A stretch of 64,000 nucleotides of DNA. Origin: Amoebophrya sp. A120. Taxonomy: Eukaryota; Protista; Dinoflagellata. The translations under genes were made by a program, and so were the position numbers. Location of the stretch: the NCBI GenBank assembly GCA_905178155.1, contig CAJINV010000019.1, positions 786,988 to 850,987 of the forward strand, read 5' to 3'. The notes below the pieces were generated by a model. It had not been told where the DNA came from. It did no database searches and saw only the letters and a program-made list of their open reading frames with translations. Within the stretch, counting starts at the first letter, position 1; the number at the start of each line of letters is the position of its first letter. Shown here in pieces: positions 27,373-49,867 of this stretch.

Positions 27373-30300
27373 TCAGCCATTCGGTCTTTTCAAAAAACTA
27401 CTTCCGTCGTCATCCGGAGACGAAAATGGGTTCGTCTTGTTGCTTTTCTTGGAAATAGGTCTACTGTTCGTGCTATTCGACGAAGAGGAAAAATTCGTCG
27501 GACTTGACGTAGATTTAGTATTGTCAGCACTCGACAGAAACGTCTTTGATACAACAGGAACAGCAGCACCTCCCGTTTTACTTTCACTACTTCCCACACC
27601 ACCTACCAGCGTCCTGCTGCCCAGCGCACCACCCTCTGGCAGTAGTACATCTCGTCCCAGTTCACTATCCACACGATTCGCATCGAAGAACGTCATTTGT
27701 CCACTGGTGTTCATGTTCAACATCTCGGTCTTGCTACTAGTTCGTCCTCTGCTGATAAACTGCTCGAAGTCCTCGTGCAGCAAAGCGGTGGAAGAGGAAG
27801 ACGTCGTGGTAACGTTACTTTCACTGCGCTTTTGATGCTGTTGGGCGGAAAACAAAGTAGACGCTGTCGAGGTGGAGATACTGTCATTTTTCTCGTCAGC
27901 ACTCTTCGCTACACCGGAACTGCTATCGGCAGTTGAAGTTGGAAGAATCTCGCCATAGCCATTTTCCGTCGTGGTCCGGTCGGTGGCAGGGGCATGTTCG
28001 CCGGAAACAACTACTGCGCTTGTCACTGCTTCAAGAACTTCTTCTTCTTCTTGAGTGACCTTTCGTCTTGACGAAGATGATGAATGTACGCCGCGGCCGC
28101 CTGGTGAAGTTGTCGACCGAAGAACGTCTTTTTGCGTTCTTGACGAGAAACCTGCATCGTTCGAAACGGGAACCTTCAATCTCTGTGGATCGCCCGAAGA
28201 AAACAAATCCTCCTCCTCCTCGACCGTCGTGCTTTCCTTCGACACAGTTCGCGCATTGTTTTTAACATCGTCGTCTTCTCGGTGTGCGGCCTTTGATGCT
28301 GCCGCGACTTTGATGCTCGAAGATGATTTTACTTCCCGCACTTCTGCGCTTCCGCTTGTCCTGCTGCTACTAACGCGATGCTTTTGATGGCGGCCTTGTT
28401 TTTTGTCACTTCTACTACGATTTCTACTTTTCGCGATGATCGCATCTTCCGCCGATGATGATGAAGTTGCAACTACCCGCTCATCTACTTGTTCCCTCAC
28501 AGTCGGCGACGAAGTCGCGTATTCATCGGACAAGACATCCGCGCCGCCGTGGTCTTCCTCGCTCTGTTTGTGGTCTGGTAACTGCTTGAAGTCGCGTTGC
28601 TGTGGTCTAGTACCAGCATCAGAAATAGCTAGATTGTGCTTCACCTGTCCTCGACGACTGTCTTCATTCTCCCCCTCCTCCCAATAAAATTCTTCCTCCT
28701 CACCAACATCCGCCAGAAATTCCGGGTTCTCCTTCACAAACAAAGGTGTGGCGCTGGCCAGCCCGGCGTAGCGGTGGTTCTGATTTTTTTGGCGAAAAAA
28801 TGTGACACCAATCGCAATTATGGCAATCAAAGACGCTGATCAATACAATTCAATTTCTTGCAAAAATGAATCATGCCACGCAAGGAAACCTGCATCTGCA
28901 TGCGCGGGAAAAAAATTTTCTCGCTTCATTTTTATTTCTAAGAATACCGAATGTCCTCCCAGCACGTGCCACCGGATTCTCCTCGCACTTCGTTCCACCC
29001 AACTGGGCACCAGCATGGATTCGGGCGAGACAAACACATACAGCACCACCACGCTCCAGTACAGCAGAGAGGTGAACAACACCACCGCGAAGGGGACAAA
29101 TCCCAGCCAGCGCCACAGCGAAAACGAGTCGTACCACTCCTGGGTGAGGTAAAAATCCTCGCTTGTGCGGGAGATGAGTTCCATCTGTGCCTCCACGTGG
29201 GTCGGCATCTCCGACGGGTTGGTGATGAGGTACTGGAGATAATCGAGGTCAATGTCCGGCCGCCGGAGGATCTCGCGGGGAATGTCCAGGAGCGGCGAAA
29301 GTTCGACGGAAAGGTCTTGAATCACCATGGTACGGCTGATAGTGATACACAAATTCATTTGATAGAAATATGTCGTGTCTCAAGTACGCAAAAGATACGG
29401 CGGCTTTATTACCGCCAAAAGCAAAGCAAGAAAAGCGTGCTGCTTCATTCATAGCGTTCATAGTTAGGTACATCACGACAAAAAAATCCGAAAGTGCTTT
29501 GTACACAGCAAACATCCCTGGCACGACGAACACCGGTAGCAAAAAGCACAGCATCGCGACGTCACCGAACACCGTGTTCGCCGGTTGAAAGAGCCAGATG
29601 CCCCAGATGACGGTGAAGCCCAGCATGGGGATGAGGAGAAACGGCGTGACGATCGCGGAAAAAAACTGGTGCAGCGACGCGTGTTTGGTCGCCACATCGC
29701 AGAGTAGGTTTTTGTCCAGGAACAGATTGGAAATCGCCTGGTGGACGAGGTTAGTTATTGTTTCTTATTCTTGGGCGACGAAATTTTTCTTGGAGGTATT
29801 TTTAATCTTGTGATGAACATGAATGCAAAAGCAAATGCATCTAATTCTGAGTCTGCATCAGAAAATGTATCTGTCATTCTCCTTCCGCTCCACCCGCATC
29901 AACATTCTATATGTAGTTGTTGAATCTGAATACCGCGTCCCTCTGCGCTGGCAAACTGCTACAGGCCCAAGAGATGAAGTCCCGAAAGTTCGCGCGTCCG
30001 TGAATGTACTGAAACCAGTTGCACAGAACTCGGTAGTATCTCTCGTTCATCTGACCTTCCAACATCACCTCCGCGTTGTTGTAGTCGTAGTTATCTTCGA
30101 GCATCGCTTTCTGTTCCTCTTGTAATAATTCATCGCTGTTTCTTGCCGGTGCTGCGCCAGTAGTTCCTGCTCTTCCGGTTCGCCCAATAGTACTAGCTGC
30201 CGGGTTCTTGTAGTTCCATCGCACAGAGGATGATGACCCGCCTGCGCTGCACTGCAAATTTGTGTCGACGTAAAACAAACTGGACCGGATTTCCAGCGAT

Positions 30301-31449
30301 TTGAACGGTCTCGTTACGGCTGGCGAATCGGAAATCACCAACCCCGTCGCCCATTTCGTGGTCAACAGCAGGTACCCGAGAAGCGCGAAGTAAAAAACGG
30401 ACAAAAGGAGAAGAAACCGCAGCGCGGATTCCCTGCGCGTGTAGAAAACGGACCAGCGCTTACTGTCGTACCACCACTTCAACTTCTCCTCCAGCTGCTT
30501 TTCCTGCTTCTTGTTCAGATAATCGTCGATTCTGTACAGAGTTCTGGATGACGAAGTAGGTGGCCGTGCTGTGACGAGCTGCAGATCATACTGATACAGA
30601 TGGCCAGTAGTAGTTGTACTAGTGCTTGAAGTTCTACTTGAACTTGTCATGCTCTGCAGCATCTCATGCGTCCCGGTACGTAACGCTGGCTGCGCTACGA
30701 GTTGCTTCGACGAGGTTTTTGCTAGGATGGTGGTTCGACCACGTCCGGAAGGTAAAGACGAAACTGTGTTTGTTTGCGCACTCCCGATAGTCGTTTTCGA
30801 ATCTCCAGGTCCACCTCCTGTGTAGTTATAAACCGGTGTTGCATCTTCAGGGGCGTAGGTAAGTTCCTCAAGATGAACATCTTTGTTCGTGTTGTGATCT
30901 TATAACAGGAAAAAGTGTTAACGTTAACGGAACTTGTGATGCAGTAACGCATCAGAAAAAGTGCCCAAATTTGTATTGCATAGCATGCATGAAGGGCAAA
31001 ATTTGTAATGCGTGACTGCCATAATTTGTGAAAACCGTTAACGTCAACACTTTTTTGTTTGATAGATCTTCCGGCGGCAACATCCTCTTCGACATCAGAA
31101 CCTGCGGGGGACGCTGCGAGAAGGTGGGAGTGTATCCTGCGCAAAAGTATCGCACTCGTATTGCAGTCATGCATTACAAATCCTTTTTTTAAGGTAAATC
31201 CGCATTACGAATTTTCTTTCTCATGCTGAGGAAATTTGTAATGCATTTATACGAGTAAGAGACTTTTACAATCCATAGAGTGCTGCTCTGGACAACCTGT
31301 TGTCCTCCTCTTCTACTTCTGCTGCGTGCTGCGTCACCCCGTCGACGGGAAGAGGAGTCGCTGTCTCTCCCACTAGTTGTATTTCCGGTCGTCCTGGACG
31401 TGGTTGTTCGCTGTTGCCCGGTGCGCCGCGGGCGCACGGCATCCGTCAT
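27373..31449 (-). CDS. Hypothetical multi-pass membrane protein with a long Ser-rich tail; last junction uncertain
   Basis: ORFs 31189..31530, 29907..30662, 29249..29695, 28840..29358 and 27373..28830 on one strand; first junctions in frame across introners; several hydrophobic helices. Confidence 0.55.
30901..31064. mobile_element. Introner family G (TIR TAT..A..AAAAAGTGTTrACGTTAACGG)
   Basis: ~30-bp TIRs; perfect direct repeat gatct; removal restores the frame. Confidence 0.88.
31133..31277. mobile_element. Introner family B
   Basis: TIRs; perfect direct repeat gagtg. Confidence 0.9.
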
Positions 31450-34371
31450 GATCCTCGCACCTCCTGCGAATCTTCTCTTGAGCACTGACTGATGAAGCTG
31501 TAAGAACGACTGCCCCGTGGCTAAAATCAATCTGGTGCAATTATTAGAATTTCAAAATCAGGAGTCAAGTGGAGAGCAGCATTGTGCAGGCACGGCATCT
31601 GCATCTCTACTACCGGGTCCTTGCTCAACCGGCTAGAATGAACCTCCTTGAGAAACAAGACAAAGGGCGGGATGAAACAACGATGAACGAAAGACGAGCT
31701 GAATACACATCGCTCGTATACCTCTTCGCCTTCATCACTCAGATGTTATGGACGCGCCGTTTTGTTTTTGCTCAGCTTTGATAAAGTATAGCACAACTCA
31801 AATCGTGGCTACTGTGCAAGTGCATAGTGTCTGCTCATGGCTTTCCTGCGGACGAAGTCTCTCAAATAAAAGGCCAAAAAACGGCTTGGGTTGCTCGCAT
31901 TTCCGTCCAGCTGCCGCTCTTCTCTTTCGATGCACTTGAATCCACGACCTACAGGAACGAAAAAAGTCATTACTTAAGGCCACGGAGGAACACGTGCACA
32001 AGATCTACCCATGCCAGAGTTCTCGGATGAAGGCGGATGTAATTTTTCACATCACCGCCATTTCCTGTTATTTCGCATTTTTTTGCTTGTTAAAAGTCCG
32101 TGACCAACCTACCTCCAAAGTGGAGACGAGGTGTCAGAGTCACGACGATGGAAAATCAAAATAATCGCGCCAAACCATGAGCAAACTTTTGTTGTTTAGG
32201 GGAGAAAATTTTCTAAACCAGCAGCTATAGCTCGTCTTCATCTTGTGTTGTCTTGAGGATGAGTGTGTAGGCCTCGTCCAAGTACGTATTTCCATGCTGT
32301 CAAAAGATTTATTGCAAATGAGAATGGCGTCAAAGTTCATTTTCATTTTCAATCATGTCGTGCACCACACCATTGTGGGTCGTCCTAGCATCCATCTCTT
32401 TACTCACCATTTTCGTTTCCCCGACGACGAGCAGTCGGGGAGCTCCTGCACGTGGTGGTGGCCCGTCGTTGCGTCCCGTCATGACAAAGGAGCAAAAGCT
32501 AGTTCATCTTCCGAGCCGCACTGGTGGTTGTCGCGTTTTTGGTATTATTAAGTAGAAAAGTTGCACGAGGATGTTGAGAAGGAATTATTGAGCAGCATCT
32601 GGTGTAGAGAAACTCTCGCCCTTCACTACGCCGCGGGCTGCGGGTGTCCGGGAAAACACTCTTCCCATTTTTTGTTGCCGTGTTTCTGCTCGTGGTGCAT
32701 CTTGGCCATCTTCAGCTGCGTTGACATGAAACTCTGCAGGCACACCTGGCACTGCAGGGTCATGCATTTTGCGTTGGCGTCGAGCTGCGATTTACCTGGG
32801 TTTTTTTTTTGAGGTGTATAATTTTAATTTCTGCTCGTTTTCATGATCCGTTCCTGCGATTCACAGAAACAGCTACAGTTGCTATAAGCGAATGAGGTGG
32901 ACTGGATGAGCAGGACCTGTTTAATTATTACTACAGAAAAACTGCAGCTATACCATCTTTCGCATATTTTTCTGCCCGCTTGGCGGCGTCTGCTCGTTTT
33001 CTGTTCGCTTCGCATCCGTTAGAGCGGCCCATTTTCGGAGATGCTGTGAGGTAGTGCCGAACTTAAAATCTTCAAAACAAAAAGCAAATCGTAAAACCCC
33101 AGGTGGGCGGTAGTAGTTGCAAAGTTGGTCGTATTTTCTTGGGGGAACAGCTAGCAATTACAGGTTAAAATGAAGTGGTCGCTACTTTTGCAAGAATCTT
33201 CTATCGCGATTGGAAGTACGAGATTTGCACAAAAAGAAAAACTACTATATGATTCGATGGATTTCAAGTGGCTTTTCACGTCTCAAGTCACTGTGGTATG
33301 GGTCAAGTTGAGTCAATGACGTTGACGTCCTTTCGAAAGCAGCTTAAGTTTCATTTATGTATCGTCGAGGCGAACGAAGCGCATGGGTGGATTTGTTCTG
33401 CTTGCTGCGCATGCCAAGAGTTGTTGGGCGTGTTGCGAGGAAGATACTCGGGCTTATGCGGTGCGTCTGTGAGCAGGACGGCGGAGGTGGGCGGCGCGCG
33501 CGCGACGAGCCCCCTCTCCGAATGGATCCTCAACCTCATTCAGCTCAAAGTCAAACAATTATTCTTAGCGAATATACCGATGGATTAGGATCATGTACTT
33601 GCTTCTACTCGTTTCATCCATGTCTCATGGAAGTGATTTCAATTTCTCTCGGAAAAAATGCGCGGTGATTAGCAGCGCAATTTGGATTTGGCGAGTACTA
33701 GACATGACTTCGATCATCTTCGATTCTGTGCGTCATTTTCGATTTTTTTCGATCGGTAATTTGCGCGGAATCAATTCCTGCTGTAACACTTTCTTTCAGT
33801 TTCATCGCCTTCGCCGGCGAAAATACTCCTGCATAATTATTACATTTACATTGCTGTAGCGAGCGTATGATGCTCGCGTAAGCAAAGCATGATTGAATCT
33901 TATTCGTGTATGAGGAGTGCGATGTGAAAATGCACCGAAGCGGAGGTATGCGGTGCGGGTAGTTGTAGTATTGCGACGAGGTTTTACTGAAAAGTCTTGT
34001 TTCTCGTTGTCCTGAACTTGTTTGATGCATGTAGCTCATCTTCGAAGCGTGTAAATATGCCGCACAGAAATTTATTTCTCCACACAGATAATAAACCTCT
34101 ACAACTTCCGCGCACAAACTCCTTGAGCCCGAGCCTCCTTAAACCAAAACGTTGCTGCAGCTGCACATAAGTAGGACTTGTCAAGCTAGGTTCATTCATT
34201 TCCAAACAGATAGACCTTACTGTCTGGCCAAACCATATTGTACATATGAAATAAAGTACAAAAAAAACCACGTGAAGATCATTTTCTACAGACGTCAACA
34301 TCTTCACCCTGCGACCACCACCGGGAAAGAACAAGAAGAACGTAGGACAACATACAATGCTCCTGGATGTC

Positions 34372-37300
34372 CTAGTTCATCTCGGAACAGCACCCATTCG
34401 CGGTTTTTTCCGAAGCTTCCCCGATGGACAGAGTCCGCTTCATACCCGACGAAGAAGGTAATGTCGTGCAGGAGGAACCCATACCCATTTTATTCACTCC
34501 ACTACAACTCCCGCCCGTTCTGTACTTCGTGATCACCATTTCTATGGCGTCGAGCCCCCGCTTGATCTCCGGAAACGACGGCCCGTAGGACAGCCGGACG
34601 AAGCCCGAGTTATTGTGAGGAAAAATCCCCCCTCCCCATATCAAAAAGGTAAGTCGCCGAAAATTTGCAATGCTGATTTGCGACCACAAATCATCTCTGT
34701 CTTGCAAGAAGGCAACTCCACAGGCTCCGCCGCATTATGCAGGCGGTTTGTGATGCTGTTGGGCCTACAGCGCAGACGTTTCTCATGCTAAGAGCCTAGC
34801 TCAAAACCTCTCTACTCAGGCTTGGTATAGACCTGCAGTCCTCTTCAGCAAGACAAATCTGATTTGTGTACGCAAATCCAGCATCACAGACTTCGTTTTG
34901 ATGTGGGGTGGGGGGATTTTTCATTTTGATACGAGTAATTCGAGAACTTCCTGCGATGCCCGGGGTTGACGTCAAAAAACACATATCAAGTGTAAAAGTG
35001 TCGGGGTCTGGAAGAATGCAACTTGTGATGCTGCATTTGGATTCCAACAAACTCTGTATTGCATGAGTACCAAAGGAAATGCAATTTTTGCTACGCTGAG
35101 AAGGCATTTGTCATGCGGAATACGCATCAAGAAGCCCTCAAAAAATCTGTATTGCTAGGGTATGCACCACAGACATCATGGCTCATGCAAAACGTGCGTG
35201 ACAAGTGTCAGAATCTTCCAGACCCAGATATTTTTACAATTCATAACACGCCGGGGCAGACGATGACCTTCCCCTCGTTCAGCATGGTCCGGAAAAACCG
35301 CCTATCAAATGTAAAAATGTCTGGGTCGGGAAGAATGCAACTTGCCATGCTAAATCTGAAGCATGCAAAAATCTGTGTTGCATGATTACCAAAAGTCGTC
35401 CAGTTTTGACCAAGTCGGTAGGGAGTTTCTCATGCAGGATAGGCATGAGAGAGATCGCACAGAATCTGCCATGCTAGGTCCTGCATTCCAGACCTCATGG
35501 GTCATGGAAAAGCTGCATGACAGATCGCGCATTCTTCCAGACCCAGACACTTTTACATTTGATACCCCCAGCAGGTGTTCAACGGAGCCGGTAAACTCGA
35601 GATGTCGCACCAGCAGTAAAACGTCCCCTGCGGCGGGTGTTCCACCACGATGTATGGAAGTGCCAGAATCGAAATTGACAAAATCGAAAAATTTGTGATG
35701 CATAAAATGCATGACGCGGAATACGTGTGTTGCAGAGCAGGCAAGTGAGGCCGATACCGATTGTAAGCCTGTTTGGGGTTATAGCTCGAGCTGCTAAAGC
35801 AACATCATGAGAGAATCGGTCTTCTTTGCCTAAACAGCATTACAAACTGGATTTAGGCACCGCCAGAATTTGTCATGCGCCACTTAGAAACTGGGTTCAA
35901 ACTGGAATCCGTTTTATGCATGACAAATCCTTTCGATTTTGTCGCTTTCGATTCTGACACTCCCATACTATGTTCATCTCGTTTAGCCGGTGCAGGAGGA
36001 AATCCCGTTTGTTATGCATTGCAAAAGTAACGTACTAGTATAAATTGCATTACAAATTTTGGCAAAAAGAAAAGTGGGATTTGTAATGCTGTTTTACTTT
36101 AGGAGGAAGATTTGTCATGCATACTTCGACTACCGGAATTTAAGCACGGGGTCACAATTGTCTTCTTTTTGGGCTTGGTGCGCCAACCCCGCATCGCTTG
36201 CGTTTGTGCCTGTTTTTGCACCTTTTTGCGTGCCTGATTTTCCGCCTGTTTCTGTAGCTGTTTCTGTGCCTGTTTTTGCGGCTGCGCCTGTTTCAGTGCC
36301 CCCCGAGCCGCCACATTCATAGAAGAGGGCACTTTAAGTGCCAAAGTGCCCTCTTCTATGATAGTGTCTGGTAGGCACATGCATAGCACAACGCCGGGCC
36401 GTCTACAAAGCACGCTCACGCACGCAGCGCCTGCCTGCCGCAAAATGGCGCGCGGAAGGGCATCGCAAAAGATACTCCGGGGGCGCTGAATGAATCTGAC
36501 ACAGAATAGGTGCCCGGCAATCCACCTCTTCGGGCATGCCTCTACTCATCCGCCACAGGGCCTCCCAGCGCTGCAGAGCCCGCTGCGCCTTGAATTGCCG
36601 GGGTCGACTGCTGGCTCTGGGTCAGCTTCTGCAACAACTGCTCTGTCCTTTTGTTTGCACTAATCCATTGGGAGCGAAGGGCAACACTCGCACAACCGAC
36701 CACCCAACCAGCCAACTCCCCCTCTTTGTTGCTAGAAGTCCTGCTGGGCCGACATCTTACTAAAAGCAAAGAGAAAGATACCTGCTAAGAGACGGCCACT
36801 CCGTGGCGAATAAAGTTCTACAAAAATATTTGCACTTCAGAAGCATGGTCGTTCCCGATCATATCCGCCGGGGCTGGCATCCCGGCTGCTGACTTCAGCA
36901 GGCTGCTTACTTTCTGCTTCCTTTGACACGGACGAACAAGGGTGGGTTACATCTGCTTTTTTTCAAAAAGGTCTAACCCCCGCTAGTGGGTGGGCACTAG
37001 CGGGGGTTAGCTTCGGACGAATGTAACCCACCCTTGTTCATTTGTTCTAGGATGAACAAAGGTGGGTTACATTCGTCTGACCCTAACCCCCGCTAGTGCC
37101 CACCCACTAGCGGGGGTTAGAACTTTTTGGAAAACAGACAACCTAGCCCACCCTTGTTCGTCGGATCCAAATCATGGCGCTTCACATCGCCGGGTGGGCT
37201 CCGGCGATCAGAGTCGGCGAGCCTCCAAAGACATCAACTACAGAAAACATCTGCAGCGTACCACCCAGAATAAAGTGTTCCGCCATGGTATGGGGCGCGG

Positions 37301-40300
37301 ATTAATATCGCGCACCAGGCCATGCTGCAGAGCCCTACTCCCGACGGAAAACTAAAGGGCTAAGAGCGAAGTTCGCGCCCGCCATGCCGCGCGAAGGGTG
37401 AAATGGGACTGGGCACAACAAGTCACGACACAGTACCTTGAGCCAAAAGCCTCCCACTGCAACACACTTGACATCGATTTCATAATCCACAAGTCTCAAT
37501 AAGCGACGCTTCAGGTTGACATCAATGCTCTGAATGCCGAAAACCTGTCGCGCCAGATCTGCACACACTTAATTGAGACTTGTGGACTAAAAGATCAATG
37601 TGTCAAAGCTTGCGATGTCGGCATTTTGGCTCAAGGTACAATGGCGTGAGTTGCTACGCCCAATCCCTTTTCACCCCTCACGCGGATTGACAACCACAGC
37701 GACGCACCCAGGGGCCGCCCGCGTGGAGGACACGCATGCAGAAATTTTTGGCCCCCTAGGTACCACCGGATAAGTGCTTCTCTGTTCCCTCAGCACGAGC
37801 GGCTTTATCCAGCATTTTACTTCTCCATGTGATGCCGCTTTTTCGCCTTGTTTCGCGCCCTAGTTTTTCTGTTTGTGATTTTTCAAACCGAAGCAACTGC
37901 CACGACCTACTTGCGGCCGCGCTTTGCCCTTTGGTTTTTGCGCTGGAACCCGCGTCAAAAAGTAGAATTGTGACCCCGTGCGTAAATTGAGGCTTTTGAA
38001 GTATCTGCTGCAATTACTACGAGTACGATACTTTTGCACAGGATACTTGTGGCTGAAGAGCAACTGCAGGAGGATGGTTTGCTCCACGACGATATCAACT
38101 GTAAAAATGTCTGGGTCTGGAAGAATGCGCGATTTGTCATGCTGCTTTTCCATGACCCATGAGGTCTGGAATGCAGGACCTAGCATGACAGATTCTGCGA
38201 GACCTTTCGAATGCCTATCCTGCATGAGAAACTACCTCCCGACCTGGTCAAAACTGGACGACTTTTGGTAATCATGCAACACAGATTTTTGCATGCTGCA
38301 GATTTAGCATGACAAGTTGCAGTCTTCCAGACCCAGACATTTTTACATTTGATAGACGAGCTTCGGGTTCAGCAGCGGCACCAAGGCCCGTTGCGTTGGT
38401 AGAGATGGTCCCCCGTCGAGAAATATCAAATGCAAATATGTCTGGGTCGTCTGGAAGATTGCAAGACTTGTGATGCAGATCTCGATGACCCATGACGTCG
38501 GGCATGCAGGACCTAGCATGACAGATTCTGTGAGCAGACCTCTAGCATGCCTATCCTGCATGAGAAATTGCCCCTGAACTTGTCCAAAAGTGGACATCTT
38601 TTGGACATCATGCAACACAAACTTTTGGCACGATCCAGATTTAGCATGACAATCAAGCTGCAACCTTCCAGACGCCAGACATATTTGTAATGCATAAGAA
38701 AGGACCCCGCGGCCCCCACCGCTTCGATAACCTGGTATCCTGTGCAAAACTATCGTACTCGTATTGCAGTCATGCATTTACAAATCTCTCTCTTAAGGTA
38801 AATCAGCATTACAAATTTTATTTCTCATGCTAGGGAAATTTGTAATGCATTTATACGAGTACGATACTTTTGCAATGCATACCTGCCGCGGGCCGACGAT
38901 CCAGCAGACGCGCAACCCCGGCATGCGCCAGTTCTTGGTCAGACCATCGAGGAGGATCACCGGGTCACTGTTCACATCGTCCACGAACTGCGCGGCGGAA
39001 ACCATGCGCCAGTGCGCGTCGGAGGGCGCCATACGCTGCGTGTAAACATACCTGTAAATTTGTATTGCATAGCATGCATGATTATACTAGCGAAAATTTG
39101 TCATGCATGCACGTACCTGAGAAAAATTTATGTCATAATTATGCAGCTCCTTTTGTGGATTATTCATTTTGCTTGAGCAGGAGTCCGAATGCATGAACAA
39201 ATAGACGGCGCAAACATGCACACATTTCTCCTGGTCGTAGATCGATATCTGGATTGCATTTCTATTTGCAATGCAAAAAAAATGTCATAATAAATTACCT
39301 CGAATAGATCTCGTCGATAACCAGCGAGCACTGACATTCCCTTGCAATCCGGACCCAATTCTTCAATTCTTCCCCCTCGACCAACTGCCCCGTCGGGTTG
39401 CACGGATTCGAGAACAGCAACGCGCCCAACCCTTTCCCCACAATCTCCCGCCGGAGTTCCTGTAGCGTCAACCGAAAATTGTTCTCCGGATTCAACAAGA
39501 TCGGAATCGAGTTGATTTTTCCGGTCAAGGAAAATTGGGACAGCAATTCCGTGTACGCCGTGTAGTCGGGCAAAAAATGCCCGAGATTGATCTGGTCCAT
39601 GGCGGCAATTAACCGCGTCAGCGCGAGCCGCCCGCCGCCGACCAGTGCGACGTTCTCCGCTTGGTACAGCGATTGCTTCCCCTTGCGGTACATGTCATTG
39701 TAGAACTTCGCGACCGCGCGCCGGAGCGCCAAATCCCCGTTCACGTTCCCGTAGTGTAAATTTTCCGGGGTCACCTCGAGCTGTTTCAAATCCTGGTCCC
39801 ACGGGCCCTGGATGTGCTCGCTGGGGCCGAAGTTGTGGCTCGCGTTGTTGTGGAGGTGGGCTGCCGGGTTGCTGGTCTGCGCCGCGCAGGAGGGCAGTTT
39901 TCCCGCCTCGATCAATTCCTTGATTCGGTTCCGCACCGACGCCGGCCAGTGCTTCGGTAGCGACGTTTCCGGCGACCCCTGGCCCAAGTTGGCCCACTCG
40001 TGCGCGGTCTGGGCGGAATACCCGACCTTCGCGGCTTCGTCCATCACGTAGATGACGCCCGTTTTCGGGACTTGCCGGAAACCCGGGATCAACCGGTTAT
40101 TTGTCGAACTGGATTTATTCTGCGTCGGTCCGTCCAGGGTCGTGGTGGACGATTGCTGCTGTCGATCTTCCTCGTCCGAGTCCATGGCTAAATCTCGATG
40201 TTGCGACGAAGTAGATCCACTGTTGTTCTTGGTCAGACTGTTGCGCGGACCACGATCTGCTGCACCTCCGGAGGTTGACCCGCAATCGGAGGTGTTGCTG

Positions 40301-40866
40301 GTCATCAAACCGTTTTTAATATCAGCCGCGGAAGAAGAATTTGCGACTGGTTTCGGTGGTAGCGCAGCCTTTCGTCGGACCTGGTACTGTGTGGTTGTCA
40401 CTTTCGTCGTGATTCTAGTGGGGGAGACAGTACCGGAAAGAACGGAGTCATACTCTTCCTCGGGCGTTCCATTATTCTTGTTCCCGGATTGTTCCGGAGA
40501 CATGTTGACATAGTTGTTGACTTTCTGACGATTTTTGCTAAAGGTCGTCTCCACGGTTGTGCAATCGTACGACCCCGGCGCGCGAACTTCCAACTCGTCA
40601 ATCCGGTACAACACGCGCACCACCCAATCCAGATCAGAGGTGATTTGCTGCACCCGCTTGAAGTTGGCGATGACGGCGACGTCGATCCAGCCGGTACAGT
40701 CGTTCTCTTCCGACCCGTGTAGTTTCTCGCGCAGCCAGGTGTCTTTCCACAGGTTTTTGTCGCTGAAGTAATACTCGAGCTGCCGCTGCAACCGCCACTC
40801 GTCCGCAGAAAGCTGCTCCGCGGGCTTCGCGGGGGACGCGGTTGTGGTCATGTGGTCGGGGGCCAT
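34372..40866 (-). CDS. La-motif + PLP-dependent class I/II aminotransferase fusion; 10 exons
   Basis: QLEYYFSDKNL..GWIDVAVIANFKRV (La motif); NLGQGSPE, FSNPCNPTG, VIDEIYS, DGLTKNWRMPGLRVCW (PLP Lys), PQGTFYCWCD, CPGVFFD, FVRLSYG recovered in one frame after removing 8 introners and 1 GT-AG intron. Confidence 0.92.
34611..34931. mobile_element. Introner family E
   Basis: TIRs; perfect direct repeat cgagt. Confidence 0.9.
34984..35245. mobile_element. Introner family A
   Basis: TIRs; direct repeat acaca/acacg. Confidence 0.9.
35303..35564. mobile_element. Introner family A
   Basis: TIRs; direct repeat ccgcc/ccccc. Confidence 0.9.
35653..35967. mobile_element. Introner family F (TIR TATGGrAGTGyCAGAATCGAAA)
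   Basis: TIRs; direct repeat cgatg/ctatg; homologous to 57904-58208. Confidence 0.9.
36317..36361. repeat. Perfect 19-bp hairpin
   Basis: tcatagaagagggcacttt-aagtgcc-aaagtgccctcttctatga. Confidence 0.9.
36931..37162. repeat. Nested palindrome: two inverted ~110-bp arms, each itself a hairpin
   Basis: Each arm has gaacaagggtgggttac...gtaacccacccttgttc (or a close variant) around ctaacccccgctagtg-ggtggg-cactagcgggggttag. Confidence 0.9.
37401..37458 (-). ncRNA. Dinoflagellate SL RNA-like gene (diverged copy)
   Basis: agtgggaggcTTTTGGCTCAAG|GTACtgtgtcgtgacttgttgtgcccagtcccattt; 3' 12 nt of DinoSL plus GTAC donor. Confidence 0.6.
37486..37500 (-). promoter_or_regulatory. Candidate SL RNA upstream element ATTGAGACTTGTGGA
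   Basis: Identical 15-mer ending 27 nt before both SL-like exons. Confidence 0.5.
37572..37586 (+). promoter_or_regulatory. Candidate SL RNA upstream element ATTGAGACTTGTGGA
   Basis: Identical 15-mer ending 27 nt before both SL-like exons. Confidence 0.5.
37614..37671 (+). ncRNA. Dinoflagellate SL RNA-like gene
   Basis: gatgtcggCATTTTGGCTCAAG|GTACAA: 18/22 match to DCCGTAGCCATTTTGGCTCAAG, Sm-like ATTTTGG in the exon, GT donor, GGCGT/ACGCC stem, TTTT end; 58 nt. Confidence 0.75.
38093..38354. mobile_element. Introner family A (opposite orientation to 35303-35564)
   Basis: TIRs; perfect direct repeat gacga. Confidence 0.92.
38424..38696. mobile_element. Introner family A
   Basis: TIRs; perfect direct repeat agaaa. 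Confidence 0.9.
38736..38881. mobile_element. Introner family B
   Basis: TIRs; direct repeat cctgg/cctgc, which supplies canonical CAG|GT...CAG|G ends on the gene strand. Confidence 0.92.
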
Positions 40867-41654
40867 TTTGCGCCACAAGACTCCTCAGTGAAGAGCTCGA
40901 GAAGAAAAAGGAAGGGATATTGGTTATATGGCAACAAGTACCTGCTGAGCTCCAAAATGCGAGCTTGACCTTGAAATTGAAAATTGTATCTATCAGTAGT
41001 TTTTGTATCTATCGACCGTCGTCTACTTTTTCGTTGCAAACGGAAGAGGAAACCTCCAGAAGTTGCAGATTCTACACTCGAAATAAAATGATATTTGACA
41101 CTTGTTTGAACTTCTGCTTGCGATTGGATGAGTTACGCAATTAAGCGATGGCGCTAGTAGTACGAACTAGAACTTTCAATTTTCTCATAATCTTGCACTT
41201 TGAATTGAATTCCACCAATTTTATTTTTGGCATCTCTCAGAAATGGAGGTTGACACATTGACATTGCGTTGAAATCGGAATCAGAGCTACTTCTTTTACT
41301 GGTTTGCATTTTGCAATTACTGTTTCCGTTTTGGATCATCCGGAAGTGTGCATGTACTAGCTTCCACTCTCTTCAACAGTTCCGTCAGTCTGACACGGGA
41401 TCTGGGAAATGATCTTCCTTATCTCCCCGAAATACTTGCGTCGCAGCTGTCTATTCCTGCCCCTCGTCGACATATCGTGCTACAACGAACTTCAAATGGT
41501 GAACAGATACAACTTATCCAGGAGCATGAACCACTCAACAAGAGGTCACCCCTGAGGGAAGGGATCCATGAAGAGCGTCGTCGTGAAAGATATCAATGGA
41601 TCAAGATCATGATGATCCTTACCAAAAAATTAAAATCATTTAGGCACAAGAAAA

Positions 41655-44649
41655 CTATTCCGGCGGAGGTTTCTCTTGCCAACAGACCACTCCATCCACA
41701 CAATCTCTAATGATCTCGAGCCCCGCGCGGTGGACGTCCGGCGCTCCGGACCTTGCCAAAGTTATAACCCGCTCAGGTGTTACAATCTCAAACGTTACAA
41801 TAGAATCTGGAATTTGTGTTGCAAGAAGTGCATTATCTAGCTTACTCCCATAGGATTGCGCATGACAAGTTCTGGAGTCCCAATCCGCACTACAATCTGG
41901 CGAAATTTGTATTGCAGATAGTGGAATGCTGTCCGAGTCTGTCATGCTCGTCATGCAATACAAAACCCAGATTCTATTGTAACGTTTGAGATTGTAACGT
42001 TTGAGCGGGTCATAAAAGTGTAGTTCTTTTTGTCCGCATAGACCTCTAAGAACGACTGCGGGGTCCACAAGTTCTTCGCTTTTGCCTTACAGCTGTCGTC
42101 GTCGATCATGTCAATAGTCACCCCGTAGATTTTGTCGAGCGGCACTTTCGCCTCCTCAAACAGAAACCGCACTGCGGAATAGGTTTCTCGGACCTGCGCG
42201 ATAGGCAGCAACCCGGTAAGTTCGTAAACAGTCCGTGGGCAGTGCTTTCTTGGAAACAGGAGCCCCGGACAGTCCATCACGACCAGTTGCTGGTCGGCGT
42301 CTTTGTCTTTGTTTTCGGCTGAAGTGATGTTCTTAGGCTCTTCACCTCCTGCAGGACCACGCGTGGCATCGTCTATGATTTCGCCAGATTTTTTCTGATC
42401 ATCTGACGCCTCAGCGCCATGATCCAATTTTTGCTGCAAATAATTGACTTGGTCGACAACCTTATCTCCGTTATTTTCACCGCGGATCTCCGGCGTGAAG
42501 TCCAAGTCGTTGTTTTTGTTTTTCGCTCGTCTCCGCTTGTTTTTCTGCTTCTGCCGGTTTCCCTCCGCTGTGCTTAAAGTCGGGGCGGACACGTTTTTCG
42601 TCTCTGTAGTTTCATCAGGTCCTCCTGGTGTCATTTTAGACGCGGCGCCGGCCACACGACCTCCCGCCCCGGAAACGCCGCTTTTCTGCAGTTCCCGGTA
42701 GTCGGTGCGCATTTCGTTTTTCATTTTCTTCATCTCAGATTTCGAGAGGTTCTCGAAGTTTTGCACCTGCTGCGCCACAGACACAGAGGGGAGCACTGCT
42801 GTTATTGGGCCATCAATCGTGGTGGCTTGCGCTTGGCCGCCCTGTGGGGACTTTGATTTGTTTCTTTTCATCTCCTTCTGCAGTTCAACCTGTTTCTCAC
42901 TGTCTAGAAAAATGTGCTGCACATGTTTGGTGTGCCCTGCGGTCCGCGACACGCTCAGTCGGCGAACGCCGAGAATCGCGTTCAAGAGGCTGGACTTCCC
43001 GACGTTCGGGTGGCCTAAGCAGCCGATGGTGATTTTGTTTGTGCTCTTGTCGTGTGGTCCGCCGCGTTTTGGTTTTGGTCGGTCAACGGCTTGCTCATCG
43101 CCGGACAAAACTACCGCAGATGATGTTGTAGTTGACAATTCAATCGCTTTATCCACAATGGCGTTCGCGTATGCGTCCACTTTTTTCCGCACGTCGACCT
43201 TTTTCCCGGCAGGCGGGTTCTTGAGCCGTTTTCTCCGGAAGTTCGCCCCGATATTCTCCACGAATGCTTCGTGGGATTCTTCGTCTAAATGCGGTTGCTT
43301 TGTAAACGGAAACACCGCGGCGAATTCTGGTAGATCGAATTTATGAAACTGCTCACCACTTTGACTTTCATCTCCTATAGCAGGACTTCTGGCCGCCTTA
43401 GTCCTGGTGAAGAACTCCCGCCACTTTTCGAAATCAGCAGTGCTGATCAAATCTACTTTCGTCAACACGAGAAGCAGCTGCTTCCCTTTCACGGCCTCTT
43501 TACTCAAGAACGGGATGTGCATCAAAGGGTTCCGCGCGTCCGCACAGAGGATCAAGACCGTTGACTGCTCGGTCGTGCGCCACAGCTGCCGCCACACGTC
43601 CAGGTTGTATTCGACAGGAGGGATGCTGGTGTAGTACGCGTAATTATTTGATGTTCCTGCGTTATAATTATTAACGGTGGCGTCGTTCGCTTTAGAGATG
43701 TGTTCTCTCGTCGCTTTACACCACGTTGCGAAAGCGAGTTCTTCGGCAGATTCGAGCTCTTCCTTCGTGAGTAAATTCGAGGTTGTAGGCCGGAGCGGGA
43801 AGGGGAGGGCAGAGCCGATGTATTTGCATTTGGAGGAACAAGGTGAATTTGTGCTTGCAGGTCCTGCTGTGCGTGTTGTGGTAGAAGTTGTAAAATCGCC
43901 CGACGTATCAAATGCAAAAATGTCTGGGTCTGGAAGATTGCTACATTTGTCATGCTTGTCTGACATGACTCAAGAATCTGTGATGCATGGGCACGCAGTG
44001 GCCCTCTTGCCTGTCATGCAAAAACGCAGTTTGCCATGAGGAACACGCAACACACAGGAGCCCAAAAATTTGTCATGCTTGGCTTCGTATTGGAGTGGAA
44101 CTCGCATTCACTCTTAGCATCACAAGTTTCCAGACCCAGACATATTTGCAATGCATACGACGACGCCGCAGCTCCACCGGTGCCCACTTCTAAGATTCCT
44201 GCCGCACCACCACCCCCGGCGTGACCCTTAGCATCTTCACTGCTCGTCGCGTTCTCAAGTTCATCTTGTTTGATTCGTCCAGCATCTTCACTAAAAGTTC
44301 TACTTGCAATTATCTTTATCTCCTTGTCTGCAAACTCTCTTCTCTTCTGCACCAGTTCCGTTTCCTCTTTTTCGAAAATGGAGGAAATGATCGCTTTTTT
44401 CTTTCCCAGTTCCAACGTGATCGCCTGCCCGAAGGACTTCACCAGCTCGGGGAGTTTTTCTTCGGCTTTGGAGGCTGAGGACCTGATGGATGACCCTGTT
44501 CCAGAAGACCGGCGCGGTAATGGTTGCGGCGGTTCTTTGTCTTTCTCCCCGGGGCTGTTCGACGCTCTACCTCCCTGCTGCGGCGGGGAGGAGGTGCTGC
44601 TTGGGGGAGATAAGTAGGAGCTACTCGCGTTCTTCTTCTGGTCTGCCAT
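41655..44649 (-). CDS. GNL1: GNL1/LSG1-like circularly permuted GTPase (YlqF/YawG family); at least 3 exons, start uncertain
   Basis: EYNLDVWRQLWR, DARNP, TKVDL (G4), GHPNVGKSS (G1), SRTAGHTK (G2), DCPGLLFP (G3), PIAQVRE, GAPDVHRAGLEIIRDCVDG. Confidence 0.85.
41763..42014. mobile_element. Introner, family C-like (TIR TATrACCCGCTCA...GTTACAATCTCAAACGTTACAATAGAATCTGG)
   Basis: ~45-bp TIRs; perfect direct repeat aaagt. Confidence 0.92.
43906..44157. mobile_element. Introner family A
   Basis: TIRs; perfect direct repeat cgacg. Confidence 0.92.
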
Positions 44650-46166
44650 GGCTTTGATGTAAGCGCTAGACGACGGGATGTGCATCTTCAACATACGAAT
44701 TAGAACAGAAGGAAGGGAAAGACAAAGAAACTTGATTGGAGCAGATTATGTCATCACTTTACGATTATAGATGAAGGTGAAAGAATCAGGAGGGCCACAC
44801 GTCGCTTTTTATTCTATACTGTGTTTATATTGCGGGAAGCAGGGGGGTATATGTAGTCGCTTTTGGTGTACTAGGTGATAGGGTAGAAAATCTTCTCGAG
44901 GGGCGTGCTATAGACCTTCCTGGAAGCGATATGGGCTCGAGCAGCTCGCTCAGCGAATAATAAAATCACACTGGCAAAAATAGCACTACTTGGGACGGCC
45001 GGCATGATAGGAATGAGCTTGTTAGCCTCAGGTCGTGCCACGAAGTTCTGTTATTTATATTTTCAAGGAATTACCCTCAACATTATTTGCGAAATGGAAA
45101 TTCTGTTTTCCATTTTAAGCTGCTACTTATGCAACCGAAACCGATCTTTTTTTTTGTTGAAATCGTATGTATGACTATGAACTATGAAGATCCACCTCTG
45201 GTTGCAGCCTGCCAAAGTAAAGACTTCAGACTCCTTCACCACCAGAGAGGTGTAGGTCAGAGAACAGAGTTCGGCCTCAAGAAGAGTAGAATTTGCGTTG
45301 ACATTGGCAATCAACATCGCCCCTGTTGTTCCTGCTGGCTCCTTCCTTGAAAAATGCAAGGAGCGCGGCGTCGTAGGCTTGTTGAAGACTATCGACCCAT
45401 GAAGAAAACTTTCGTGATGCAAAATCAAGAAGGGGTCCATGGTGCTCAAGTTACAGCAACATGACTCATTGTTTTTTGAAGATGAAGATTGGCAACCGCT
45501 CCTTTACCGACATCAGAATCGAAATTGCGGAGGAGGTGGAGCACCGCGCACCTTTTGTTTTTCACTTTTTCTCGCCCTTTCGTAGTTATTGTATGAATTC
45601 TTTTTGAAAAAATTCTGGCACACATCGATTCTCACTCTTTTGAAAACTAGAAAGAGCATCAACATGTGCAACGTCACTCACTGCTGTGCCAATAGAGTTG
45701 TTTTTTTAATTTGGTTCACACAAAATACTTGCACTTGCACATGCAACAATTTTACAAAAAGTAGTGAAGACTGAGATTCGTAACTACTTGCAATAGAAAA
45801 TACTGAAACTGAAGACCACTGCTCCCGCACCCGCATACATTTGTTGAAAAATTTCTTGGCTTGCGTTTTGGCACACATCGTCCCCATGACGAGTATTATG
45901 AGTACACTACTTACACTACGACAGAAACAACTGCAATGAATCAGCATGACTTGATGAGGTGAAACGTCGTCCGCAGACCGCCACAGATTTCTTGCTGTCA
46001 AGCGTCGTCACATGCGCAGCATGCCGATTGATTTACGTTTGATTTACGTTTGCCCTTGCCCTTCCTCAGCTACAGAAAGCTATGATGGCAATACGAGTAC
46101 GATACTTTTGCACAGGATAGTGACTGGCCGCCGTCGATCCCTCCCGCACGGTAACTTTTATTGCCT

Positions 46167-46426
46167 GATCAAATGCAAAAATGTCTGGGTCTGGAAGAGA
46201 TGGGACTTGTCATGCACATTTTGCATGACCCGTGAGGTCTGTGATGCTGGTGCTAGCATCACAGATTTTTTGAGAGCTTCTTGATGCTAATTACGCATGA
46301 GAAATGCACTCTCCGCGTGCCAAGAGCTGACTCCTCTTGCTGCTCATGCAACACAGATATTTTTAGAATCTGCAGACAGCATTACAAGTTGCATTCTTCC
46401 AGACCCAGACACTTTTACATTTGATA
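46167..46426. mobile_element. Family A element in the duplicated unit (left end GAT, no clean direct repeat)
   Basis: A-type TIRs. Confidence 0.8.
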
Positions 46427-46538
46427 TTCGCTACAGAAAGCTCAAATTCAGGTCGTCCATTTTTTCAAACCGCATCACCATTGCGTGACTGGCTGGCGTC
46501 GATCCCTCCTGCCTTTCGCCCGCTACAGAAAGCTCAAA

Positions 46539-46790
46539 TATCAAATGTAAAAGTGTCTGGGTCTGGAAACTTGTGATGCTGGGTGGCGTCTCATGATGAG
46601 GCCACAAGTGCTGGCTCAACATGACAAGTTTCTGAGCTTCTAGGTGTTGCCTATTCTGCATGACAAACTGCGTTTCTGCATCACAGAAAAACTGGGCTAT
46701 TGGGTGACGTGCATGACAGATTTAAGAGTCATTCCAGACAAGCATGACAAACATGCATTCTTCCACACCCAGACACTTTTGCATTGGATA
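46539..46790. mobile_element. Family A element, duplicate of 47403-47654
   Basis: TIRs; direct repeat tcaaa. Confidence 0.9.
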
Positions 46791-46838
46791 TCAAATTCAG
46801 GTCGTCCATTTTTTCAAACCGCATCACCATTGCGTGAC

Positions 46839-46983
46839 TATGAACTGCAAAAGTATCGCACTCGTATAAATGCATTACAAATTTCCTCAGCATGAGAGAG
46901 AAAATTTGCAATGCGGATTTACCTTAAGACAAAGATTTGTAATGCATGATGGCAATACGAGTACGATACTTTTGCACAGGATA
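46839..46983. mobile_element. Family B element, duplicate of 47703-47851
   Basis: TIRs; perfect direct repeat gtgac. Confidence 0.9.
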
Positions 46984-47030
46984 GTGACTGGCCGCCGTCG
47001 ATCCCTCCCGCACGGTAACTTTTATTGCCT

Positions 47031-47290
47031 GATCAAATGCAAAAATGTCTGGGTCTGGAAGAGATGGGACTTGTCATGCACATTTTGCATGACCCGTGAG
47101 GTCTGTGATGCTGGTGCTAGCATCACAGATTTTTTGAGAGCTTCTTGATGCTAATTACGCATGAGAAATGCACTCTCCGCGTGCCAAGAGCTGACTCCTC
47201 TTGCTGCTCATGCAACACAGATATTTTTAGAATCTGCAGACAGCATTACAAGTTGCATTCTTCCAGACCCAGACACTTTTACATTTGATA
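47031..47290. mobile_element. Family A element, duplicate of 46167-46426
   Basis: A-type TIRs. Confidence 0.8.
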
Positions 47291-47386
47291 TTCGCTACAG
47301 AAAGCTCAAATTCAGGTCGTCCATTTTTTCAAACCGCATCACCATTGCGTGACTGGCTGGCGTCGATCCCTCCTGCCTTTCGCCCG

Positions 47387-49867
47387 CTACAGAAAGCTCA
47401 AATATCAAATGTAAAAGTGTCTGGGTCTGGAAACTTGTGATGCTGGGCGGCGTCTCATGATGAGGCCACAAGTGCTGGCTCAACATGACAAGTTTCTGAG
47501 CTTCTAGGTGTTGCCTATTCTGCATGACAAACTGCGTTTCTGCATCACAGAAAAACTGGGCTATTGGGTGACGTGCATGACAGATTTGAGAGTCATTCCA
47601 GACAAGCATGACAAACATGCATTCTTCCACACCCAGACACTTTTGCATTGGATATCAAATTCAGGTCGTCCATTTTTTCAAACCGCATCACCATTGCGTG
47701 ACTATGAACTGCAAATAGGTATCGCACTCGTATAAATGCATTACAAATTTCCTCAGCATGAGAGAGAAAATTTGCAATGCGGATTTACCTTAAGACAAAG
47801 ATTTGTAATGCATGATGGCAATACGAGTATCAGATACTTTTGCACAGGATACTGACTGGCCGCCGTCGATCCCTCCTGCACGGTAACTTTGATTGCCTCA
47901 TGTTGGTCCTGAACGTCAGCAGCATGTGGGCCCTGATGCGGTGCTGGTGTTCTGCTACCAGGTGGTCCGTCTGAAGATGCTCTTGCAACACTACCTAGAG
48001 CAGGACGTGGTCGAATGACATACCCGCTACCCACCGCATCTCGTAAAAACTTCAGCATTTTTGTATTTCGTTGGCCGTAGGGAACGAGAATCGCAACGTA
48101 GGCTGCAATTGGCTCACTTCTTCCAGTTGCAGCACGACTAGTTGTTCCGGTGCCGGCAACCTCCACATCTTCGTCCAGCTTCAGCAACTGCGCCCAGTTT
48201 TCCAGTAATCTTTTCGCGGATTGGTCCGACACCAGAAACCCACCGCACGTCTTCCTCCCCTGCTGGTCACAGTCGCACAGCATGTCCTGGAGAAACAGCA
48301 GGGACACTTGGTTCTCCAGCTCGGGCAGGACACAGCAGGAACTGGCGCTTCTACACTGCTCGCCTGCCGTGTTCATTACGTCAAACCGTTCTTGCGAGGA
48401 CCTCTTTTCTTCTCCTTCGCAGCTTAGGCAGAACTTTTTGTTGTCCAGAATCAAATCTAAGCTGCTTCTGCTGTATCTCTTCGTCAACCCGGTTCTGATG
48501 TGGCGGATATTGGAAGAGGGCGCAAACATCAGCTGCTCGCTCTGATTCACGTTTCCACATGGGCACAATTGTTCCATCGGCGAGAGTTGCGGGACACCGC
48601 CAACGTCCAGGAGGTAAAAGGTGGACTTTTTCTGTTTATCGTCCCCATCCTGCAACACACGATGATGATCCTGGGGACCACCACCATAATAGTGCCTCTC
48701 CACCCAACGCTGAATCCGGACCGACAGATCTTCGAAAGGACGACCGTAGTAGCCCACACTAGTATCCGTTGCTCGTTTCGCAAGCACCAAGCCGCGAGAA
48801 AAATCAGTCGCAGGCCTGACACTTTTATGCTCCTCGTCCGCTGTGCCAAGCAGGGCGTCCAGCAGGGCTGAGAGTGGATCTTGCAGTTCGGGCACCTCTT
48901 CTTGGTCCTCAGCCAAAGAAACTCTTGAAGATGGCAGCGCTGGCGGAAGGTCTGTCTCGTCCTGGTAAACAGCAGTTGCAAAAAACGGAGATATTGAAGA
49001 TTTTCCAAGTTCTTGTAGATCGTCTGTCTCACTAGATGAGTCTTCAGGAGATGAAACTTCGCGGCCAGTCTGCGTCATGCCGCAAAAAGCAGATTGCTGG
49101 ATTCTTGTTGATGAGACCACAGGACCACACTCCGCCTCTGCTTGTCGTGAAGACGAGGACGCTTTGCGCTTGTTGCCACCGCGAGTGCTGCTTCTACTTC
49201 TCTTACTACTCCTAGAACTTCTATTCGAAGTTTGCCGACAAAAGGCCGCCGCCGCCCCTAAAATCGGCGGTGCTTTTCCGTCTAAGACTTCCGAAGATGA
49301 GGCTTCGTCGCTGCTAGCGGAGGGAAGGGCGGTGGATTTCGTGAGTTTTCGCGTATCGTGGTCGGATTTGAACTCATCGTCTTCGTTGGCACTACCTTCA
49401 ACATGATCTTCCCCGAGCACATGCCACGAAGAACCAATCGCACCCGCATGTTGCGACGTCACTGAAGATGGAGTTCTAGTGGAGACCGAGCCGAAACTGC
49501 GGTGGCGCCGGAGAAAATTATCCGCGGGGGATGATGAGACACTTAGTACTTGTTCGGGTTGATATTCATGGTAGGTAGGAGCTGCGGGCACACCACGGGG
49601 CCCGATCGGCAACCATTTTGATACTTTGCTGGAGGTTGCGCTTTGCTCCTCGTCGACTTCTCGTGTTGCGGCTCCTGACCAGGGCTGTTGTTGGGCGGAC
49701 ACTGGAGGGGCAGGCATTTCTTTAGATGAGCCAGGGATTTTCGTTTGCGCTGCAGAGACCGCTCGGAAAAGAAGGCACGGGGTGGTGGTCGTGTCCCGCC
49801 TGAACGCGACGGCGATAACTGCAATGAAGGACCGTGTCGCCCGGCGAAATGTTGACATCTTGTTCAT
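47387..49867 (-). CDS. Hypothetical protein (hydrophobic N-terminus, Ser-rich region, possible SAM-methyltransferase-like domain); 3 exons ending DDLNLSFL*
   Basis: 704-codon ORF plus two short exons across introners; FYLLDVGG resembles methyltransferase motif I (weak). Confidence 0.65.
47403..47654. mobile_element. Introner family A
   Basis: TIRs; perfect direct repeat tcaaa; empty site visible at 47293-47375. Confidence 0.95.
47703..47851. mobile_element. Introner family B
   Basis: TIRs; direct repeat gtgac/ctgac; empty site visible at 47293-47375. Confidence 0.95.

Follow-up and report, generated by a model that had tools for sequence, protein, structure and literature searches.

Back-to-back, 5'-remodelled copies of a spliced-leader RNA gene lie within a multi-copy inverted-repeat element of Amoebophrya

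Spliced-leader (SL) RNA genes of dinoflagellates (DinoSL) specify an RNA of 50-60 nt with a 22-nt exon, and their Sm-like site lies in the exon. Non-autonomous Tc1/mariner-type elements (MITEs) and Pack-MULEs have terminal inverted repeats (TIRs), and Pack-MULEs capture genes. The locus described here lies in a 64-kb window of Amoebophrya sp. A120 (by the window we mean the whole stretch of 64,000 nucleotides analysed), in which copies of an SL RNA gene, remodelled at their 5' ends, are carried within a multi-copy TIR element; the structure is real and unusual. Like DinoSL genes, the two units have an exact exon 11-22, a GT donor, an SL intron subtype, a T-tract (weak in the minus unit) and the 22-nt register, whereas their 5' decamer has been replaced, stem-loop I has been lost, and they form a divergent pair inside a TIR element. 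Like MITEs and Pack-MULEs, the element has TIRs, a TA duplication, no coding capacity, captured host fragments and several copies, but its cargo, an SL RNA gene, sets it apart from them. Variant SL types of Perkinsozoa, as described in the available parts of PMC9399869, resemble the units in keeping the 3' end and the GGTA junction. However, those variants retain the 5' ACCGTAGCCA and their use in mRNA has been demonstrated in the same source, whereas the units are altered at that end and are candidate donors at most. Leader variation in Amphidinium is scattered, with positions 2-7 little changed in the available text (bioRxiv 10.1101/2024.02.20.581179). Both mRNA SL relics and the non-expressed SL-like sequences of Perkinsus marinus, in the accessible part of PMC3101222, are likewise dispersed and of doubtful function, although relics keep the exon without the intron, while our units keep the intron and tail without the 5' half of the exon.

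Amoebophrya introners are inverted-repeat mobile DNA within introns, according to the available text of PMC7789003, and the element, too, is inverted-repeat DNA within an intron. Unlike introners, it is far longer and far fewer in copies, has its own TIR and TA target, and does not set the intron borders. No matching transposase is reported for A120 in that text (PMC7789003), and many orphan and truncated SL motifs are described for Amoebophrya AT5 in the accessible part of PMC6482013. In the accessible portions of the open-access literature, we found no description of a DNA transposon that carries SL RNA genes, and the dinoflagellate and perkinsid SL literature examined names no SL promoter in its available text. 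We favour, with a probability of roughly 0.5, the reading that the units are captured, 5'-remodelled SL RNA gene copies in a multi-copy TIR element, likely as passenger cargo and not as normal donors.

The sequence TTTTGGCTCAAGGTAC is found in the 64-kb window at 37624-37639 on the plus strand and at 37448-37433 on the minus strand, and no further site was found there with up to three mismatches allowed. An earlier note on this DNA had proposed two divergent units at these sites (Table 1), each with the 3' half of the SL, a donor and a variant 5' half, and this description holds: exon 11-22 is exact (12/12) and is followed immediately by the GT donor in both arms, and the first ten exon letters differ from the canonical leader DCCGTAGCCATTTTGGCTCAAG at 5 (plus) and 8 (minus) positions. 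As in the canonical gene, TGC precedes position 1, a purine stands at +1 and the exon measures 22 nt in both units. The Sm-like site ATTTTGG is exact in the plus unit and has C for A in the minus unit. T-rich ends had been claimed for both units; the plus unit does end in four T, but the minus tract is weak, with three T preceded by A. As the note had observed, the copies diverge widely while the upstream 15-mer box, the SL 3' end and the donor stay exact, and identity between the arms is accordingly uneven by region: 15/15 in the box, 14/27 at -27 to -1, 3/10 in exon 1-10, 12/12 in exon 11-22, 27/36 in the intron, 12/14 in the next 14 nt, and 5/20, the chance level, farther out. In total, 30 of 116 alignment columns differ. 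Two exact runs of at least 15 in such a 116-column alignment arose in 1.1% of 100,000 shuffles, a figure uncorrected for the site having been picked out through such a run.

Table 1. Features of the locus, in window coordinates
Feature	Position	Strand	Remarks
Host gene, La-domain + class I/II aminotransferase	34375-40866	-	777 aa, 10 pieces
Left part of split introner	36011-36123		89/111 against positions 1-110 of intact introner 38735-38881
Non-coding TIR element, 1,878 bp	36124-38001		TA on each side; likely non-autonomous Tc1/mariner-like DNA transposon
Left TIR	36124-36163	+	
Internal fold-back, 33-nt arms	36303-36375		27/33 identical
Internal fold-back, 120-nt arms	36922-37171		103/120 identical
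SL-RNA-gene-derived minus unit	37401-37458	-	Altered exon 1-10, exact exon 11-22; host sense strand
Minus unit, 3' features	GT donor at 37436	-	SL-type intron, weak T tract
TA-flanked segment between boxes, 103 bp	37485-37587		Possible nested mini-element (inferred)
15-mer box, minus arm	37486-37500	-	Then one base + TA
15-mer box, plus arm	37572-37586	+	Then one base + TA; promoter-like position, TIR-like sequence
SL-RNA-gene-derived plus unit	37614-37671	+	Altered exon 1-10, exact exon 11-22
Plus unit, 3' features	GT donor at 37636	+	SL-type intron, 4-T tract
Fragment of another very high-copy sequence	37699-37761		Several different flanks elsewhere in genome
Right TIR	37962-38001	-	X3 contig stops at 38001; X6 contig runs 2 letters farther
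Right part of split introner	38002-38045		34/39 against positions 113-147 of introner 38735-38881

A metagenome scan for a shared 16-mer gave at least 120 stretches, from which 119 loci were used, all comparison SL genes being selected by the exact 16-mer. The matches listed held 96 distinct full-length units, 48 of them with an SL-type intron. Leader positions 2-10 carried no change in 45 of these 48, one change in a single gene and two changes in two genes, and more than two changes in the nine positions occurred in none of the 48 SL-type-intron genes among the matches listed; the window units carry 4 (plus) and 8 (minus). Their introns, with scores of 18 and 15 where 1,500 random 30-mers reached at most 13.5, pass the same threshold, which agrees with the earlier view that the units are not mRNA relics, and their intron subtype was seen in six metagenomic genes (L192, L209, L181, L123, L148 and L137). 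A covariance model, which weights the invariant exon heavily, was built from 43 of 44 candidate genes from the matches listed (L223, whose intron looked unrelated, was omitted). It gave 19.8 bits for the plus unit and 8.1 for the minus unit, with a chance match at 14.4 between them, and 58.5-83.6 bits for full canonical genes (38 loci among the matches listed, seven in the training set). Stem-loop I, invariant in 43/43 canonical genes among the matches listed, is broken by the altered first ten letters: 5/8 of its pairs are retained in the plus unit and 3/8 in the minus unit, and the paired donor is lost. Intron helix pairs are retained at 4/6 (plus) and 5/6 (minus), and the C-G pair of the intron hairpin, kept in 42/43 canonical genes among the matches listed, is broken in both units, these intron breaks being judged against the introns of relatives and not against A120's own canonical intron.

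About 6-7 of the 8 relatives scanned for neighbours lie beside 5S, rDNA or snRNA genes, with rDNA (18S, 28S) or 5S adjoining at L123, L137, L148, L172 and L181 and U4/U5 at L192, the introns of these six being of the units' subtype or a related one; no neighbour gene was seen at L209 or L161 among these 8 loci. L124 holds a degenerate second SL gene copy at 1961-2019, and L189 and L216 have a full leader followed by GTAC without the SL intron, in the manner of relics. Elsewhere, Rfam over 35000-40000 gave sub-threshold hairpin matches only, the 15-mer SL pattern had 116 matches in viral contigs with none SL-like among the top-ranked, and the TIR pattern was found in 0 viral contigs and 0 of 235 loci.

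The units had been thought to ride in a TIR element. Inverted repeats are indeed present, but the extent of the element had to be corrected: the TIRs are ~40 bp, with a core identical at 31/35, and the element runs between two TA (Table 1). It contains no long ORF, the longest overlapping stop-to-stop frame being 148 aa, and we take it to be of Tc1/mariner type because a TA duplication flanks it. Contigs of the DNA sequencing runs X1, X2, X3 and X6 were compared with the window; X1 and X2 represent one sample, possibly the source of the window, and X6 another. Unique regions in X1 have a depth of 26-32, with a single-copy baseline of 29.1. Six X1 element contigs reach 2.7-5.7 times 29.1, and four X2 element contigs 3.3-5.2 times 45.1, an X2 baseline that comes from one contig assumed to be single-copy. 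Summed contig depth is a rough guide only to copy number, and it suggests that the element is present in about 3-6 near-identical copies. Element copies differ by 1-3%, and more distant relatives are found at 84-92% identity. Carriage by a multi-copy element, as opposed to a single copy, is supported by the depth, by the variant copies and by branching at the right end, where the ends of the X3 and X6 contigs are as expected if different flanks come after the TA.

The inverted pair is covered by these runs. The whole of 37400-37728 lies in a single X2 contig, which shows 7 differences, the same region is covered in overlap by X1 contigs, and X6, the other sample, covers 37102-37524 and 37619-37749 with the majority element type and both units; X3 lacks cover over 37510-37698 and was not counted as evidence. 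The copies are not uniform: one X2 contig has a changed letter at 37624, the first T of the Sm-like site in the plus unit, other copies are changed at 37433, the sequence of an X3 contig parts from that of the element within the minus decamer (37450), and the window copy shows differences that no other copy shares. A further X2 contig (depth 68.5), with a joint from 37449 to 37385, carries a direct tandem of two minus-type SL-like units and is a further locus of the same SL-like family. Within the element, an X3 contig omits 178 bases of the nested palindrome 36922-37171, which suggests fold-back collapse in another sample, and the fragment at 37699-37761 has a bin depth of 2,214 in X1 and 3,526 in X2, in the thousands and of the same order as that of the canonical SL gene.

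The canonical SL gene of the organism is found in very deep contigs, which match the units at 80% or more and then run into the 5' half of the canonical leader and 20-22 more upstream letters ending in TGC; their loose ends lie at 37448 (X1) and 37622 (X2). Its depth is ~103-108 times single copy in X1 and 104 times in X2, as read in these two runs over window positions 37388-37448 and 37622-37657. The available text of PMC7789003 describes a single complete SL gene in A120, together with transcripts that carry a 13-nt leader motif only. The depth suggests that what is a single canonical gene in the assembly stands for some 100 repeat copies that were collapsed into one, possibly rDNA-linked. 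Since this gene is present at ~100-fold depth in the same DNA runs, the units are not needed for ordinary leaders. The proposal that they are SL donor genes is supported as to descent from an SL RNA donor gene; that they are working donors is doubtful, given the broken stem-loop I and the ~100-fold canonical gene.

In X1, the match to the canonical gene extends from 37448 to 37388, ~14 nt beyond the T-tract, an overrun that suggests capture at the DNA level. Upstream, homology of the -22 to -1 regions to the canonical gene is suggestive only: compared with random 27-mers of the window, the minus unit gives p 0.009 and the plus unit 0.11, and these values rise to 0.12 and 0.30, respectively, with TGC fixed. 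On the reading that we favour, an SL gene from the ~100-copy canonical repeat would have been captured at the DNA level, duplicated into a back-to-back pair by fold-back, in the same way as the two other palindromes of the element, and mobilised in trans by a putative Tc1/mariner-type transposase. The 15-mer would be the terminal repeat of a small element inserted at the centre TA, and the units would have ceased to be donors when the 5' decamer and stem-loop I were lost.

It is conceivable, if somewhat less probable, that both units are transcribed as variant SL RNA genes, with the shared box driving them divergently, minor leaders being donated to some mRNAs and the element spreading them. 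In favour of this, the Sm-like site, the donor, the TGC/purine initiator-like start and the box are conserved and the decamer is not; leaders that vary around a common 3' end do occur in Perkinsozoa (available parts of PMC9399869), and the majority element type with both units is also present in the second sample. The A120 mRNAs with the 13-nt motif only, as the accessible text of PMC7789003 has them, correspond approximately to the part common to the variants, but are equally explained by incomplete 5' ends. The loss of stem-loop I and of the paired donor speaks against donation, as do the near invariance of the decamer in the 48/48 SL genes among the matches listed and, among element copies, the Sm-site change and the interrupted allele. 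Neither altered decamer pairs with its own intron end or stabilises its own RNA beyond shuffles (p 0.54 and 0.37). The broader proposition that a DNA transposon carries its own expressed SL gene pair with new 5' halves, seeding alternative leaders genome-wide in a group whose leaders hardly vary in their 5' half, we regard as less likely than not.

Whether the pattern of change reflects selection, as the earlier note had suggested, bears on the same question. The two units together differ at 13/20 decamer positions, at 15/54 intron positions, counted against the majority of six relatives, and at 0/32 positions of exon 11-22 + GTAC (decamer versus intron, Fisher p=0.006). Judged from these letters, the divergence is non-uniform, contrary to what plain decay would give. 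The concentration of differences in the decamers and the retained TGC, purine and exon length are in keeping with selection on the units, but the Sm-site change (37624), the changes at 37433 and the break in the minus decamer among the copies are not, and the ~7 differences in 329 nt available for a check among copies give little power to test selection.

The box enters both readings. The identical 15-mer does lie exactly 27 nt upstream of the 22-nt exon in each arm, at 52 nt from the TTTTGG, and this spacing is equal in both arms although their best alignment has gaps. Its position suits a promoter, and it may be a promoter element, but this part of the earlier claim is weakened by the resemblance of its sequence to the terminus of the element. 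With up to three mismatches, the only other window match to the box is 12/15 at 37986-38000. The plus box + TA is the best of 127,958 window positions when compared with the right terminus + TA (16/21); the left TIR reaches 15/21 and the minus box 14/21, a score common to 8 positions, and the whole resemblance is a post hoc finding. Since no other place in the window resembles the element end as closely as box + TA, the 15-mer may be the TIR of a nested mini-transposon at the palindrome centre. The 103-bp mini-element showed no extra depth, branching or independent copies in X1/X2. Upstream of 68 canonical SL units from other taxa, a few of them duplicated, the best match to the box among the matches listed was 10/15, and the box + SL pattern had 0 metagenome matches; for A120's own canonical gene, the upstream sequence covered 22 nt, short of -42 to -28. 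A box-like 9-nt match 53 nt upstream at L137 (10/15) was rejected as chance level because 9/68 units share that score. As a further post hoc observation, ten letters of the altered minus exon (positions 6-15) match the right TIR letter for letter close to its end (37990-37999) and also resemble the box.

Transcription without donation is improbable, although it would suit some of what is known. The units would then yield Sm-binding small RNAs that act as decoys, helpers or 5' guides, for example as a U1 substitute: U1 was not detected in A25/A120 according to the available text of PMC7789003, SL RNA can take the place of the 5' end of U1 in vitro (work cited by the accessible part of PMC4233971), and the altered part is exactly the 5' ten letters. 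However, the copies are few and lie within a mobile element, and guidance of introner borders by the decamers was rejected, with pairing to 8 donor-side and 8 acceptor-side host-gene borders not in excess of shuffles (fractions 0.10-0.70). Decamer matches within the element were likewise near chance, 9/10 being reached by ~3% and 8/10 by ~16% of random decamers. An origin of the inverted pair in misassembly or in chance similarity, as the repeat-rich locus and the private differences of the window copy might suggest, is highly improbable and largely refuted by the spanning X2 contig, the overlapping X1 contigs, the cover of both units in X6, the number of differing arm columns and the intron scores above the null.

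Even as passengers, such copies are a route for SL gene dispersal and diversification, and they are a candidate source of the orphan and truncated SL motifs of AT5 reported in the available part of PMC6482013. Expressed variant donors, if true, would be far more interesting than passengers. If expressed, the units would be natural mutants testing the need for the invariant 5' decamer and stem-loop I in trans-splicing, they might help to locate an SL promoter, and they would represent a new, mobile class of leader. Three RNA runs (X11-X13, examined over 28000-47500) placed reads on introner repeats only, with 90-95% identity, and left the unique exons without a read, so they carry no information on expression of the units. 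A sigma-70 scan found nothing and has no bearing here.

The host gene was resolved by mapping of the A120 protein into ten coding pieces, all on the minus strand, and the element sits in its intron 38045-36011, so the minus unit does lie on the strand of the host pre-mRNA, as had been noted. Over residues 260-529, the host protein shows 100% identity with one that is labelled Amoebophrya sp. A120; core dinoflagellates supply the next named matches. Most introns of the gene are inverted-repeat introners at very high depth, as the available text of PMC7789003 describes, and the element splits an introner lying inside the host intron: TA is found on both sides of it, its flanks rejoin into one introner, and empty-site joints 36123 to 38008 are present in X1. 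The fusion of a La domain with an aminotransferase occurs in many core dinoflagellates, and the last third of the host gene is interrupted by eight introns, most with inverted-repeat ends. Farther out, at ~32625-32800 on the minus strand, a short reading frame has two cysteines and two histidines spaced, by eye, like those of a zinc finger. X11-X13 come from a differently related strain, and their 90-95% matches to the introner repeats mean that related introner families exist there as well.
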